From Squalus acanthias (Eukaryota): a stretch of 64,000 nucleotides of DNA. Where the stretch lies: the NCBI GenBank assembly GCA_030390025.1, contig CM059432.1:35032001-35096000 (forward strand), in the 5' to 3' direction. A model generated the notes under the pieces. It was not told the origin of the DNA. It did no database searches and was given only the letters and a program-made list of their open reading frames with translations. Of the stretch, positions 20,701 to 29,700 are shown piece after piece (positions within the stretch are counted from its first letter, which is position 1; each line of letters starts with the position of its first letter). The translations under genes and the position numbers were made by a program.

Positions 20701-23700
20701 TGATAAAACAATTCAATAGGGTTGATACAAAGAAACAATTTTGTCTAGTGGGGAAATCCAGAACAAGTGAACACAATCTTAAAATTAGAGCTAGGCCATT
20801 TAGGAGTGAAATCAGGAAACTCTTTTTCACACAAAGGGTAGTGGAAATCAGGAACTCGCTCCCCCAAAAGGCTGAGGACGCTGGGTCAATTGAAATTTAC
20901 AAGACTGAGATTGATAGATTTTTGTTAGGTAAGGGTATCAAAGACGGGGAAAATGGAGTTGAGGTACAGATCAGCCATGATCTAATTGAGTGAGGGAAGA
21001 GGCTCGAGGGGCTGAATGACCTACCCTTGTTCCTATGTTCAATGGGGGTGAAAATGCAGCAGTGCCCCTAAAGTGGGGATCAAGAAATATTGTGGGAGGG
21101 AAGTCCATGATAGAATAATTATACCTGGACTCTGGGTGGAGCAGAATTGAAGGCCGAATGACCTTTTTTTGCTTTAGATTTTCATATCTGCTTGTGTTCT
21201 CTCTCTCTCTTCTATGTTTGGTACAGCCTTATTAAGGGGCTCACAGATTTCCCAGGGAGGGTCTCTACCCAAGATGTTAACCTGTCATACGTACTGTGTA
21301 TCTGCCAGAGTTGCCCTCACACTTGCCCACGCTGCCACAAACACAGCAGGAACCCCTACGAATGAAAAAGAGACCAAAGAAAACATTCAATTACAACTGA
21401 AATTTAAATTTCTCTGAGTAAGACTTTACCTTTCATTCTTGTTCTTTCGGTGTCAGCCGTGACTCAGTGGTAGCACTCGCGACTCTGAGTCAGAAGCTCG
21501 TTGGTTCAAGTCCCAATCCAGAGACTTGGGCACATAATATAGGCTGGCACTTCAGTGCAGTACTGAGGGAGTGCTGCACTGTCAGAGGTGCCATCTATCG
21601 GATGGCACGTTGTATAGCGCCCTTCACATCTTCAGGACATCCCAAAGCGTTTCACAGCCAATTAAGTACTTTTGAAATATAGTCACCGTTGTAATGTAGG
21701 AAACACAGCAACCAATATGTGCACAGCAAGGCCCCACAAACAGCAATGACCAGATCATCTGCTTAAGTGATGGTGGCTGAGGGCTAAATATTGGCCTGGC
21801 CACAGAGAACTCCCCTGTATTTCTTCAAATAGTGCCATGGAATCTTTTACACCCACCTGAGAAGGAAGATTCTGAGGGGGATTGACAGAGTAGATGTTGA
21901 GATGTTGTTTCCCCTGGCTGGAGATTCTAGAACTAGGGGGCATAGTCTCAAGACTGAGATGAGGAGGAATTTCTTCACTCAGAGAGTTGTGAGTCTTTGG
22001 AATTCTCTGCCCCAAAGGGCTGTGGCTGCTGAGTCGTTGAGTATATTCAAGGATGAGATAGATAGATTTTTGGACTCTGGAGGAATCAAGGGATATGGGG
22101 ATAGGGCAGGGAAGTGGAGTTGAGGTCGAAGATCAGCCATGATCTTATTGAATGGCGGAGCAGGCTCGAAGGGCCGTATGGCCTACTCCTGCTCCTATTT
22201 CTTATGTTTTTATGACAGGGCTTTGGTTTAACGTCTCATCTGAAAGACGGCACCTCTGACAGTACAACACTCCCTCAGTACTGCACTGAAGTGTCAGCCT
22301 GGATTACGTGCTCAAGTTTCTGGAGTGGGGCTTCTGACTCAGAGGTGAGAGTGCTACCGCTGAGCCTAGGCTGACACCAGCGCTCCTGTGTGTAGATGTC
22401 GTCAGGACACAAGATCACACTCAGCTGCGATGCACCTGAATATCTTGCCAACACCAGAGCCCAAAATTCCTAAGACCCTTTCTGTGGGAATCCCATTGCC
22501 TCTGTGGCCTCTGTTCCTGACCCCTGCTGGAGTATTAAGGATCGGAGCACAGTTAGCTAATTTACATATTTCCGCCAGGTGCCCATGTCAGAATGGCCGC
22601 ACCTTGGAGGCCTGCTGGGAAAGGAGGAAGAACATGTGACACTGGCAAGCAGCTTGGGTGGCAAGCCAGCACAACCCACTGAAATGTATGTTGAAACGTA
22701 GCAATCAATTCCCTTTATGAGGGCTTGATTTGCTTGATGCTGCCAGCAATCTTTTTGGGTGTTCCAGGCCAAGACACAGAGTCCCCACTCATAACAAGGA
22801 TGCAAAGGCCTTGGAGAGGGTGCAGAGCAGAGTTACCAGAGTGATACCAGGGATGAGGGACTTCAGTTATGTGAAGAGACTAGAGAAGCTGGGATTATTC
22901 TCCATAGAGCAGAGAAGGTTAAGGAGACATTTAATAGAGGTATTCAAAATTAAGAGGAGTAACCAGAGGAGACAGATATAAGATAATTGGCAAAATAGCA
23001 GAACAGAGATGGAGAGAATTTGGAGTGCTCTGGAATGCACTGCCTGAAAGGGTGGTGAAAGCTTTTTCAATAGTAACTTTCAAAATGGAATTGAATATAT
23101 ACTTGAAAAGGGAAAATTTGCAGAGCTATGGGGAAAGAACAAGGGAGTGAGACTAATTGATTTGCTCTTTCAAAGAGCCGGCAGAGGCATGATGGTCCAA
23201 ATGGCCTCCTGCTGTGCTGTATTTCTTTTATTTGTTCATGGGATGTGGGCGTCACTGGCAAACATTTATTGCCCATCCCTAATTGCCCTTGAGAAGGTGA
23301 TGGTGAGCCACCTCCTTGAACCGCTGCAGTGAAGGTACTCCCACAGTGCTGTTAGGGAGGGAGTTCCAGGATTTTGACCCAGCGACGATGAAGGAACGGC
23401 AATATACTTCCAAGTCAGGATGGTGTTTGACTTGGAGGGGAACTTGGAGGTGGTGGTGTTCCCATGCGCCTGCTGCCCTTATCCTTCTAGGTGGTAGAGT
23501 TCGCGGGTTTGGGAGGTGCTGCCGAAGAAGCCTTGGCGAGTTGCTGCAGTGCATCTTGTAGCTGGTACACACTGCAGCCACGGTGCGCCGGTGGTGGAGG
23601 GAGTGAATGTTTAAGGTGATGGATGGGCTGCCAATCAAGCGGGCTGCTTTGTCCTGGATGGTGTCGAGCTTCTTGAGTGTTGTTGGAGCACTCATCCAGG

Positions 23701-26700: not shown

Positions 26701-29700
26701 CAGGTTGGCACCTCATTTTTAGGTACGCCTGGTGCTGCTCCTCTTCTACACTCCTTATTGAACCAGGGTTGTTCCCCTGGCTTGATGGTAATGGTAGAGT
26801 AAGGGATAGATGGGCCATGAGGTTACAGATTGTGGTGAAATACAATTCTGCTGCTACCCCACAGCACCTCATGGATGCCCAGTTTTGAGATGTTAGATCT
26901 GTTCTGAATCTATCCCATTTAGCACGATGGAGGGTGTCCTCAGTGTGAAGATGGGACTTTGTCTCCGCAATGACACTGTTACCAGGTAGATTGGTGAGGT
27001 CAAGTAGGTTTTTCCCTCGTGGTGGTTCTCTCACCACCTGTCGCAGGCCCAGACTGGCAGCTATGTCCTTCAGGACTCAGCCAGCTCAGTCAGTAGTGGT
27101 GCTACCGAGCCACTCTTGGTGATGGACATTGAAATACCCCACTGCCCTTGCTACTCTCAGTGCTTCTTCCAAGTGAAGGAGTACTGATTCATCAGCTGAG
27201 GGAGGGCAGTCAGTGGTAATCAGCAGGAGGTTTCCTTGCCCATGCTCGACCTGAAGCCATGTGACTTCATGGGGACTGGAGTCAATGTTGCGGACTCCCA
27301 AGGCCACTCCTACCCGACTGTATACCACTGTGCCGGTCATACCCAGGGATGGTGATGGAGGAGTTCAGGACATTGGCTGAGAGGTATGATTCTGTGAGTA
27401 TGACTATGTCAGGCTGTTGCTTGACTAGTTTGTGGGACAGCTCTCCCAATTTTTGCACAAGTCCCCAGATGTTGGCGAGGAAGACTTTGCAGGGTCGACT
27501 GGGCTGGCTGTGCCGTTGTCGTGTCAATGCTGAGGTTGATGCCGGGTGGTCCGTCCGGCTTTATTCATATTATTGTGTTTCGTAGCAGTTTGTTACAACT
27601 GAGTGGCTTGCTAGGCCATTTCAGAGGGCAGTTAAGAGTCAACCACATTGCTGTGGGTCTGGAGTTACATATAGGCCAGACCATGTAAGGACGGCAGATT
27701 TCCTTCCCTAAAGAACATTAGTGAACCAGATGGATTTTTATGACAATCCGGTAGTTTTATGGTCACCATTACTGATACTAGTTGTATTTTGATGTATTTT
27801 AATTAATTTAAATTCCCCAGCTGCCTGTGGTGGGATTTGAACTAAGCATCTCTGGATCATTAATCAAGGCCTCTGGATTACTAGTCCAGTAACATAACCA
27901 CTATGCTACCTTTCCCTATGTATGATTCTACGGTAAATCGCGCAATTGCTGCACTGTATGTAAACCAGTAAAATATATTTTTTAACACTGTGCTGATGAG
28001 AAAGCTTGGCTTCCAACACATTGCCTCAAGTCCCTTGTACACCTAAGGCCAGGAATGACCCCGGGAGACCGCAACTAACGGTGGCCTCGAGCTCAGTTAC
28101 TGAATGCCTGGGTTGGCTTAGCAGGGATCGGCAGCTGTGAAATGAGGTCTGTCAATCATTCCCAAACCTAGTACCGCTCGAGGAAATGATTGACAGTGAT
28201 GCTGGCGTACTGTCGTGAGGTGGGAATATGAAGATTCCCAGTCCCGAAATGTCACTCTGTTGGGGTTGGGCGGTGGGGGGGTGGGGGGTGCACACCATGC
28301 AAACAACACCCCACTGCGTACTCTCACAGGGCTCAGAAAATCCTGCTTCTTGCAATCTTTTACAATCCTGCTCTCCTTCCAATGACGAATCTGACACTAT
28401 ACCTCACACAGACAGAACGGTTCTCTCTGTCATCCAACCCCAAGAGCGACAGTGATGGGCGACAGGAAGGATTGCACAGGCCGGGTTATTGTCCCGGCCA
28501 ATATTCTTCGGAGGAAAGATCCAGCTAGAATCCTGCTCCCCCACACAGCTTGTCGCAAACGAGATGAACCGTTTCATTGGGTCCCCCGATTGTTTCCAGA
28601 TGACATGTAGGGGTTGACTTTCTATGGGAAGGGGTCCTCCTGATCGTGAAAGATCCGTGGAATCCTGGAGAAACGGAGTTAATAAAATGACGATGGAATC
28701 GGCAGAACCCGTGCGGAAATTCAACCTTTCCTTTTATTCATTCACGGGATATGGACATCGCCGGTAAAGCCAGCATTTTTGCCCATCCATAATTGCCCTT
28801 GAGAAGGTGATGATGAGCTGCCTTCTTGAATACAACTGCATGGCTTGCTAGGCCATTTCAGAGGGCAGCTAAGAGTTAATCACGTTGCTTTGGGTCTGGA
28901 GTCACATATAGGCCAGACCAGGAAAGGACGGCAGATTTCCTTCCCTAAAGGACGTTAGTGAACCAGATGTGTTCTTATGACAATCCGATAGTTTCATGGT
29001 CACCATTACTGATACTAGCTTTTTGTTCCAGATTTATTTAATTAGCTGAATTTAAATTCCCCAGCTGCCGCGGTGGGATTTGAACTCATATCGCTGGATC
29101 ATTAGTCCAGGCCTCTGGATTACGAGTCCAGTAACAGAACCACTATGCTACTGTGCCCTGTAAACCCCGTACAGTCTTCCAATGAATGGGATGAAGGAGA
29201 GGTTTGTTTGCTATTGGACTTCAACACGCTTCTTATACAATTGTTGATTCTCCTTTGACTATTACCACAAGCACTTCCCACCCTCCTTGTCTGTAACACC
29301 TGCCCCACTATCCAAGTAGGACTCATGGCCCCATTTTGTAGCACATTCCTTAATTCATTATAACCCCTCTTCACTCAATCCCCCAAAATTAGTCGTCACT
29401 ATCATAAATCATGAGAGATTCTACAGTGGACTACAGTGGTCAATTTTAACCCTATCCCCTTGTGACTCGACCTTTTTCCCATTGTTGCCAGTTTTAACCT
29501 GACGGCAAATGAGACGCCTACCTAAAGCAAGTGGTGGCAGGGTGGCGTGTGGCTCGTTAATTTATGCAAATCAGGATCCTATTATGATAGATAAGTGGCA
29601 AGTAACATTCGCGCCACACAAGTGCCAGGCAATGATATCTCCAACAAGAGAGAGTCTGGCAACCACCCATTGATATTCAACGGCATTACCATCATTGAAT

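Follow-up and report, generated by a model that had tools for sequence, protein, structure and literature searches.

A Protein-coding Zenon LINE of Squalus acanthias with a SINE-type 5′ End and a Possible Link to RNA Polymerase III

Long interspersed elements (LINEs) are conventionally distinguished from short interspersed elements (SINEs) in that LINEs use RNA polymerase II (Pol II) for transcription and encode proteins, whereas SINEs use RNA polymerase III (Pol III) for theirs and are non-coding. A 64,000-nucleotide (nt) stretch of the Squalus acanthias genome (assembly GCA_030390025.1, contig CM059432.1, positions 35,032,001 to 35,096,000 of the forward strand; hereafter, the window) contains a LINE that opens with a tRNA-derived head carrying A and B boxes, continues through a SINE-type body, and leads into one open reading frame (ORF) of the Zenon family. 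In the explanation that we consider best, and hold with about even confidence from the sequence, the headed LINE is likely transcribed by Pol III and possibly translated by means of a tRNA-mimicking fold. What is new here is the conserved SINE front end, the ORF without an AUG start, and the recognition of a SINE as a deletion product of a known LINE family. The interpretation given in the first-pass annotation of this DNA is, as a whole, partly supported; the missing AUG and the neighboring SINE, which is Zenon minus its ORF, were not part of it.

The Front End and Family Identity of the Element

The window copy is full-length but decayed and occupies 23223..27916 on the minus strand, as delimited by its sequence and by alignment to a majority sequence of the family, which is about 3.3 kb long. 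The first-pass annotation had placed the element at 23223..27910; its strand stands, and the family 5′ end lies 6 nt farther out, at 27916. The A box (TRGCNNAGTGG; 27898..27908), the anticodon-like arm (CTGGA-CTAGTAA-TCCAG; 27889-27873), and the B box (GTTCRAATCC, GTTCAAATCC in this copy; 27833..27842) that it had read on the minus strand are confirmed. They belong to a head (27821..27916) whose tRNA origin is indicated by sequence, majority, and tRNA score, and which has a second stem between the anticodon-like arm and the B box. The anticodon-like loop reads AGT (Thr), and the head stem presumably resembles that of tRNA-Gln. A pattern search for the donor tRNA gave 1,452 matches, all of those listed being repeat heads. 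A copy near the majority scores as a tRNA (27.4 bits, E = 0.001; Rfam cut-off 29); the window copy gave no Rfam match, and ARAGORN called a tRNA in the window only at the neighboring SINE.

The remainder of the 5′ untranslated region (UTR; 27594..27820) is a SINE-type body, identified by comparison and folding, the first part of which is predicted to pair back onto the head in a rod. The ORF begins with a basic N-terminal extension, the endonuclease, and the start of the reverse transcriptase (RT) (25653..27592; majority frame and Pfam); it is interrupted by a nested canonical CR1 fragment with a microsatellite tail (24061..25652; sequence, domains, and tree), and resumes with the end of the RT and a C-terminal domain up to the stop codon (23279..24060; ORF list and Pfam). 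A 56-nt 3′ UTR (23223..23278) comprises a hairpin (folding z = −3.8), an AATAAA located 41 nt before the A-tail, and the A-tail itself. The apurinic endonuclease (APE) core begins approximately 420 nt from the 5′ end, and Pfam assigns Exo_endo_phos(_2) and RVT_1 to one ORF in sister copies, which bears out the earlier description of an APE-RT frame about 400 nt in and no ORF1. The window copy is dead, with approximately 190 nt deleted and many stops and frameshifts. It is inserted in an older repeat between probable 5-bp target-site duplications (TSDs), ATACA (5′ copy, 27919..27923; 3′ copy, 23218..23222; both on the minus strand), in that the joined flanks match one intact example (locus L196).

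The nearest proteins are 36–46% identical, the full-length ones being APE-RT proteins of 920–984 amino acids (aa). In a quick version of a phylogenetic tree, in which no named Zenon reference was included and the full-length members of the clade are those 920–984-aa proteins, the element falls in a 41-row clade (support 98) apart from CR1 and L2 of the same genome. Thus placed, its RT is neither that of canonical CR1 (HER1 type) nor of L2, and its tail is not a CR1-type microsatellite. The published Zenon consensuses were compared by eye over their first ~400 nt, and it is to this portion that the cross-species statements below apply; other papers are cited for individual passages. Because these first 400 nt agree with SquAca_Zenon-1 at nearly every base, we judge the element to be the elasmobranch Zenon LINE (PMC13343379). 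Zenon LINEs have been described from sharks, rays, coelacanth, and hagfish as elements without ORF1 and with a poly-A ending (Stuart et al., 2026; PMC13343379). SquAca, CarCar, RhiTyp, ScyCan, and HypSab_Zenon-1 correspond to the same family, with a single APE-RT ORF, no ORF1, poly-A, and a length of ~3.3 kb. The question raised in the first-pass annotation, whether the family is already described, is therefore answered in part: Zenon is a known family, and the head is not mentioned in the main text of its description, in which the terms tRNA, polymerase III, promoter, and start codon have no matches and neither the head nor the missing AUG nor the SINE link is described (PMC13343379). A SINE-headed coding LINE was not found described in the literature searched, Repbase, Dfam, and most subscription papers being outside that search.

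The head and body open all five published shark and ray consensuses (four sharks and one ray). The A box is kept in all five and the B box is intact in four, that of the ray being one base short, while the arm between them changes. Outside these animals, no relative of the element was found among viral contigs, and neither the head nor the body resembles anything in metagenome relatives (best E = 0.26). The only one of these in the same clade with a 5′ flank (L100) has a Met at codon 20, 17–20 runs of four or more T residues (T4), and no B box.

A Fixed 5′ End Throughout the Family

A search with the head and the ORF start as query gave 11,335 candidates, and all 39 other matches among the best 40 that were scored span the head and ORF. 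Because this query biases the set toward the head, a second search used only 156 nt of the endonuclease start, from which 29 copies were fetched. Fifteen begin at nt 1–7, one at nt 22, and 13 at scattered positions (73–381); the flanks of these 13 truncated copies are unrelated, only one pair being alike, and therefore there is no second 5′ end. The SINE-type head, whose attachment had been noticed in the window copy, is a family trait: its members begin at a fixed point 8 nt upstream of the A box, and no examined copy extends beyond nt 1.

A column majority was built from 23 near-full-length copies, 16 of the 39 head-bearing copies having been omitted on account of large deletions, truncation, or rearrangement. 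It is 3,307 nt long, with a 329-nt UTR, one 973-codon frame, a 56-nt 3′ UTR, and an A-tail, and the 23 copies are 92–96% identical to it. The longest other frame in the UTR has 99 codons and overlaps the ORF, in agreement with the absence of ORF1. Nearly all of the 95 listed 3′ ends have A-tails, which are poly-A rather than microsatellite, and TSDs in the 23 full-length copies are mostly absent or at chance length. A pattern search for an older subfamily returned one locus, and one contig from another organism bridges the UTR and ORF.

The first 178 nt fold as a predicted rod in which nt 6–37 pair with nt 140–173 (z = −3.6, 1/200 shuffles). The rod is kept by the sequences of the other sharks themselves, including an A-T to G-C change at a variable position of the A box, and the second stem of the head and one stem of the body have two-sided changes across species. 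Since the conserved rod uses nt 6–37, an RNA that includes the extreme 5′ end is suggested by this folding model, as expected for an internal promoter.

An ORF Without an AUG Start Codon

In the majority sequence of the 23 copies, codon 286, beyond the endonuclease, is the earliest in-frame Met. Upstream of the enzyme, the frame codes for a basic extension resembling that of its relatives, for most of which a Met start is predicted. An AUG occurs nearby only at nt 358, in the +1 frame. Sixteen of 67 copies have lost it, and these sixteen have seven linked diagnostic sites in common (Fisher p 2e-5 to 2e-3); they represent a subfamily that produced full-length copies. Indels shared by at least three copies are single-base in the UTR (4/4), multiples of three just after a GCT codon (2/2), and mostly so in the ORF (5/7); therefore, coding begins near nt 340.

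This GCT is part of a GCTA (27583..27586, minus strand) that is complementary to the 7-nt anticodon-like loop (CTAGCAA) of a predicted hairpin at the end of the body (27599..27624, minus strand; pair probability of the upper stem 0.92). The loop and the GCTA are kept in all five species as well as in an older copy (L272), and together they form a candidate pseudoknot and initiation site. A short, A-rich linker of 8 or 9 nt precedes the GCT. The spacing from GCT to the ORF keeps the frame in all 33 parsed copies (65 examined), being 18 nt in 31 of them, and is 18, 18, 15, and 18 nt in the four other species. A further, long-range pairing is predicted between nt 88–94 and nt 225–231. Fifteen of 66 copies are changed at the T of the hairpin loop, nt 309 (window position 27613); since these changes are unlinked to the subfamily sites, this position looks like a recurrent mutation hot spot.

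The Neighboring SINE as a Deletion Product

A SINE at 28731..29158 on the minus strand, recognized by ARAGORN and alignment as a SacSINE1-like deletion derivative, and 29 genomic relatives consist of nt 1–328 of the element joined to nt 3210 to the end. The SINE search gave 5,255 candidates, from which this 30-member set was chosen by the 328/3210 junction; within this junction-picked set the junction is exact in 24 of 30. The majority of 28 SINE copies is identical to the LINE at 322 of 328 nt of the 5′ end and 90 of 97 nt of the 3′ end, its 3′ part includes the last codons of the ORF, and it has the same lineage-specific second stem as the head of the local LINE. The local SINE is Zenon minus its ORF. 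Older SINEs and contigs of other organisms have other breakpoints, the 5′ side of which is always near the end of the body, and thus the ORF-removing deletion seems to have occurred more than once. Loci L262, L265, L270, and L271 represent older, single-arm-headed SINE subfamilies with different deletion breakpoints, and L265 retains the GCTA and a few codons beyond it.

The SINE is probably SacSINE1 or a subfamily thereof, whose described structure and size fit, and the body of the Zenon UTR is likely its Deu domain. SacSINE1 and other Deu-SINEs have a tRNA head, a conserved body, and a LINE-type tail, and occur in sharks (PMC5499810; PMC2746220; PMC3747384; PMC4824008). In print, SacSINE1 is 463 bp long, compared with ~425 bp for the young SINE here, and its partner LINE is given as CR1-4_DR-like (PMC3747384) or L2-2_CM (PMC5499810), not Zenon. 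The tail identity between L2-2_CM and SacSINE1 is reported as 78.6% for the shared tail (PMC5499810); unlike these printed partners, the coding LINE described here is 93–98% identical to the SINE at both ends. The three vertebrate groups from which Zenon has been reported (sharks/rays, coelacanth, and hagfish) also have the tRNA-headed Deu-SINEs SacSINE1, LmeSINE1, and EbuSINE (PMC13343379; PMC3747384; PMC4824008). Deu-SINEs are far more widespread than the head-ORF junction (PMC4824008), and this favors a history in which the LINE captured the front end of an older Deu-SINE, followed by repeated deletion, over one in which the Deu domain originated as a LINE UTR.

Scarcity of T-runs and Possible Selection Against Terminators

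As had been noticed by eye in the first-pass annotation, the sense strand of the window copy contains no T4 (27916-25653 and 24060-23230), and T4 is likewise absent from all 13 Zenon segments of the window, each read on its own sense strand. The nested CR1, with limits corrected to 25652-24061, has the seven sense runs that were claimed for it as a minimum. In the majority, T4 = 0 on the sense strand compared with 13 A4, which has a probability of 0.016 in a mononucleotide shuffle and 0.018 in a third-position model. T3 is depleted in the ORF (5 versus 11.3 expected, P = 0.003), and the observed/expected ratio of TT is 0.70. The first ~400 nt of the five headed consensuses contain no T4, whereas three headless 5′ ends of hagfish and coelacanth Zenon do, and 80 of 80 metagenome relatives contain T4 runs (3–37). 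Phe makes up 1.85% of the Zenon protein versus 2.9–4.2% in 16 full-length relatives. Of 11 listed T gains in four other organisms, none produces a run of more than 2 (40 of 342 differences covered).

Several observations weigh against selection as the cause. The absence of T4 is not significant in a synonymous-codon shuffle (P = 0.10) or in a dinucleotide shuffle (P = 0.17); against the codon shuffle the earlier proposal is half borne out, the depletion of T3 speaking for it. T4 density is 0.14 per kb in 182 kb of Zenon copies versus 4.2 in CR1 and 3.7 in L2 of the same genome, although these controls are T-richer (0.26 and 0.29 versus 0.205) and have approximately the T4 expected from their own composition. 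The sole composition-matched control with an intact frame (L101) has three T4 in 537 codons, and conserved Phe columns are kept in Zenon at 9 of 11, within the range of its relatives. Thus, the absence of T4 is real and exceeds the low T content of the element only in part and to a modest degree; selection against T-runs is moderately, not decisively, supported.

Runs of T4 or longer stand directly ahead of the A-tail at 11 of 56 ends of the LINE type and 9 of 35 of the SINE type. A terminal T-run as the Pol III terminator was considered and rejected. Duplicates of one insertion, L193 and L199, differ (T2A7 versus T5A4), and post-insertion drift of such T-runs has been described for mammalian T+ SINEs (PMC8466645); therefore, the T-run was dropped as evidence for a terminator. 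In the 3′ ends of L193, L199, and L204, which derive from one duplicated SINE insertion, A-to-T change took place at the T/A boundary after insertion.

Other Features of the Window

Further members of the family lie at 54126..54957 (minus strand; 5′-truncated), at 34527-34775 (plus strand), and at 29590..31947, where headless, rearranged pieces alternate in strand (30146-31741 minus; 29590-30142 and 31742-31947 plus), all identified by alignment. The copies listed in the first-pass annotation do belong to the same family; 29590-30142, 31742-31947, and 34527-34775 are, however, on the plus strand. In 29590-31947, a minus-strand Zenon middle stands between two plus-strand 3′ parts, possibly by inversion. 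Exons of a class B (secretin-family) G protein-coupled receptor (GPCR; 7tm_2 and HRM) are located at 32873-33376 and 41635-42021 (minus), and Zenon LINE and SINE copies lie within or next to this gene and share its strand. A 13.5-kb tandem array with a 22–23-bp unit in ~600 copies, GC-rich and strongly skewed, occupies 4357-17903, and a minisatellite with a 24-bp unit (65 copies, 95% match, several frames open) occupies 44103-45653. Frames at 51425-52006 and nearby (within 48900-52100) presumably encode a Harbinger-type transposase, and a frame at ~49021-49482 what we take to be its Myb/SANT-like partner.

Possible Mechanism and Alternative Explanations

Transcription of Zenon by Pol III is, as far as the sequence can tell, the best reading, with a probability that we put at even or slightly better. 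TFIIIC would bind to the A and B boxes, and Pol III would initiate 8 nt upstream of the A box, at nt 1, from where it could cross the 3.3 kb because no T4 is present. The 5′ rod (nt 6–37 with nt 140–173) might then shield the uncapped end. The body may recruit ribosomes while the loop of its terminal hairpin pairs with the in-frame GCT, and decoding would proceed from the next codon without initiator tRNA, as in the intergenic region (IGR) internal ribosome entry site (IRES) of dicistroviruses; this is the weakest step, and a start at a tRNA-mimicking IRES of this kind, argued by analogy from a predicted pseudoknot, is doubtful. The APE-RT would bind to the 3′ hairpin and prime reverse transcription, and internal deletions that remove the ORF would yield Pol III-ready SINEs in one step. 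That all of these parts hold together, namely Pol III transcription with a tRNA-mimicking IRES, SacSINE1-type SINEs as repeated deletion products, and a Deu domain that recruits ribosomes, which would make the Zenon of sharks and rays a self-sufficient SINE encoding its own APE-RT, is an unlikely conjunction.

A number of observations count against this mechanism. According to Kojima, the processivity of Pol III limits such elements to ~1.3 kb (PMC10886601). The modal T-run before the A-tail is 1, and hence the master seemingly has no terminator of its own. Among the top 150 RT matches, none had an intact ORF, the longest open frame having 792 aa. Two pairs in the middle of the rod (nt 21 and nt 26) are broken in a common local subfamily, and the rod is not significant in a single decayed copy (z = −1.15). 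Folding of the body alone does not stand out from that of shuffled sequences (z = −1.0), and comparison with Rfam at E up to 10 matched tRNA only and none of the IRES families. The predicted pairing between the loop and GCTA has just 3–4 pairs and no covariation, and mutagenesis of an IGR IRES indicates that at least four pairs are needed (PMC4132737). The spacing after GCT is 17 nt in the published SquAca_Zenon-1 and 10 nt in SquAca-2.

The main alternative, possible if somewhat improbable, is that the front end was captured from a SINE but that Pol II makes a capped coding RNA, whether from a promoter inside the body or through read-through from the host. Translation of the ORF would then start by a non-AUG route, for example by reinitiation after short upstream ORFs (uORFs), the A and B boxes would serve mainly the SINE, and the T-poverty would reflect composition. 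LINEs are generally held to use Pol II (PMC10886601), the zero count of T4 fits the codon-shuffled null, AUGs occur at several places in the UTR, one of them opening a short AUG-codon-stop frame within the last hairpin, and an AATAAA precedes the A-tail. In addition, the Deu-type sequence of AmnSINE1 is a binding site for transcription factors and has enhancer activity (PMC3234267). This account is harder to reconcile with a 5′ end fixed just upstream of the A box, with boxes kept in the LINE consensuses of five species despite the changing head sequence around them, and with the depletion of T3; moreover, in the whale shark consensus, where the linker is 8 nt, the upstream mini-frame and the ORF are in different registers.

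Two further alternatives concern the 5′ end and the start site. If the head were maintained by template switching or gene conversion with the SINE, the headed long copies would be chimeric and the master would have a different 5′ end. Template switching is a standard route of module exchange (PMC4824008; PMC5786205), and the SINE is abundant, as its candidate number indicates, and 98% identical to the LINE 5′ end. Yet the 29 endonuclease-picked copies showed no alternative 5′ end, and in all copies LINE nt 329–345, which the young SINE lacks, follow the UTR without a break. The same junction recurs in five species and an older subfamily copy, and head sites are linked to ORF sites (nt 26 with nt 360, and the latter with nt 1282 and 1436). 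Together, these observations make this origin improbable. More improbable still is a start at the nt 358 AUG, from which, with either polymerase, a 48-codon uORF in the +1 frame would be left for the ORF by ribosomal frameshifting. This AUG is present in all five published consensuses and its third base is kept in 47 of 68 copies, but the main-frame codons AAT-GAA would preserve it regardless. It is lost in a subfamily that yielded full-length copies, a canonical slippery heptamer was not found by eye before the endonuclease, and the main frame upstream encodes a basic extension resembling that of relatives.

Implications

Zenon is a very abundant coding LINE in sharks and rays with a SINE promoter at a fixed 5′ end and no start codon. 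If Pol III makes its RNA, it would represent a natural, long, protein-coding Pol III transcript, one requiring cap-independent initiation. The function of conserved SINE bodies has been stated to be unknown (PMC4824008); in Zenon such a body ends exactly where the coding frame starts, which makes the recruitment of ribosomes by SINE bodies testable. Were the joint reading true, binding to ribosomes would place SINEs beside newly made RT and thereby explain the long conservation of the Deu domain. Zenon also offers a one-step route from a LINE to a SINE.

Comparison with Known Systems

Translation of an uncapped RNA is a feature of the R2 element. R2 is, like Zenon, a single-ORF, non-LTR (long terminal repeat) element, and it provides a precedent for production without Pol II, in that it is co-transcribed by Pol I and its 5′ end is cut by a ribozyme (PMC3414825). 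It has no promoter of its own and is site-specific, whereas Zenon has a predicted internal type 2 promoter and is dispersed. The candidate start site of Zenon is similar to pseudoknot I (PKI) of the dicistrovirus IGR IRES, in which an AUG-less start follows the pairing of an anticodon-like loop with a codon, with a short, A-rich linker, and the loop of Zenon begins with CU as in PKI (PMC4132737). The viral structure has five pairs (PMC4132737) compared with 3–4 in Zenon, which has neither an Rfam IRES match nor covariation, and of the viral PKII/PKIII core Zenon offers at most the predicted pairing of nt 88–94 with nt 225–231. The possibility of an IGR-type IRES in LINEs was raised in a commentary in 2013 (PMC3894237).

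At its 3′ end, Zenon resembles the T+ SINEs B2, Dip, and Ves, which likewise have AATAAA, a variable T-run, and an A-tail (PMC8466645). By contrast, T+ SINEs are non-coding (PMC8466645), and the T-run of the coding Zenon is mostly 1–2 nt and drifts after insertion. Zenon has the head with A and B boxes that characterizes SINE2 elements; being 3.3 kb long with an ORF, it is neither short nor non-coding, and only its derivative at 28731-29158 is. The relationship between the two corresponds to that of RIME/Ingi, NARTc/L1Tc, Bov-A/Bov-B, and Vingi, in which the SINE likewise consists of the 5′ and 3′ ends of a LINE after internal deletion (PMC5786205). The model proposed for those pairs adds a tRNA head after the deletion (PMC5786205), whereas the coding parent of the Zenon-derived SINE is already headed.

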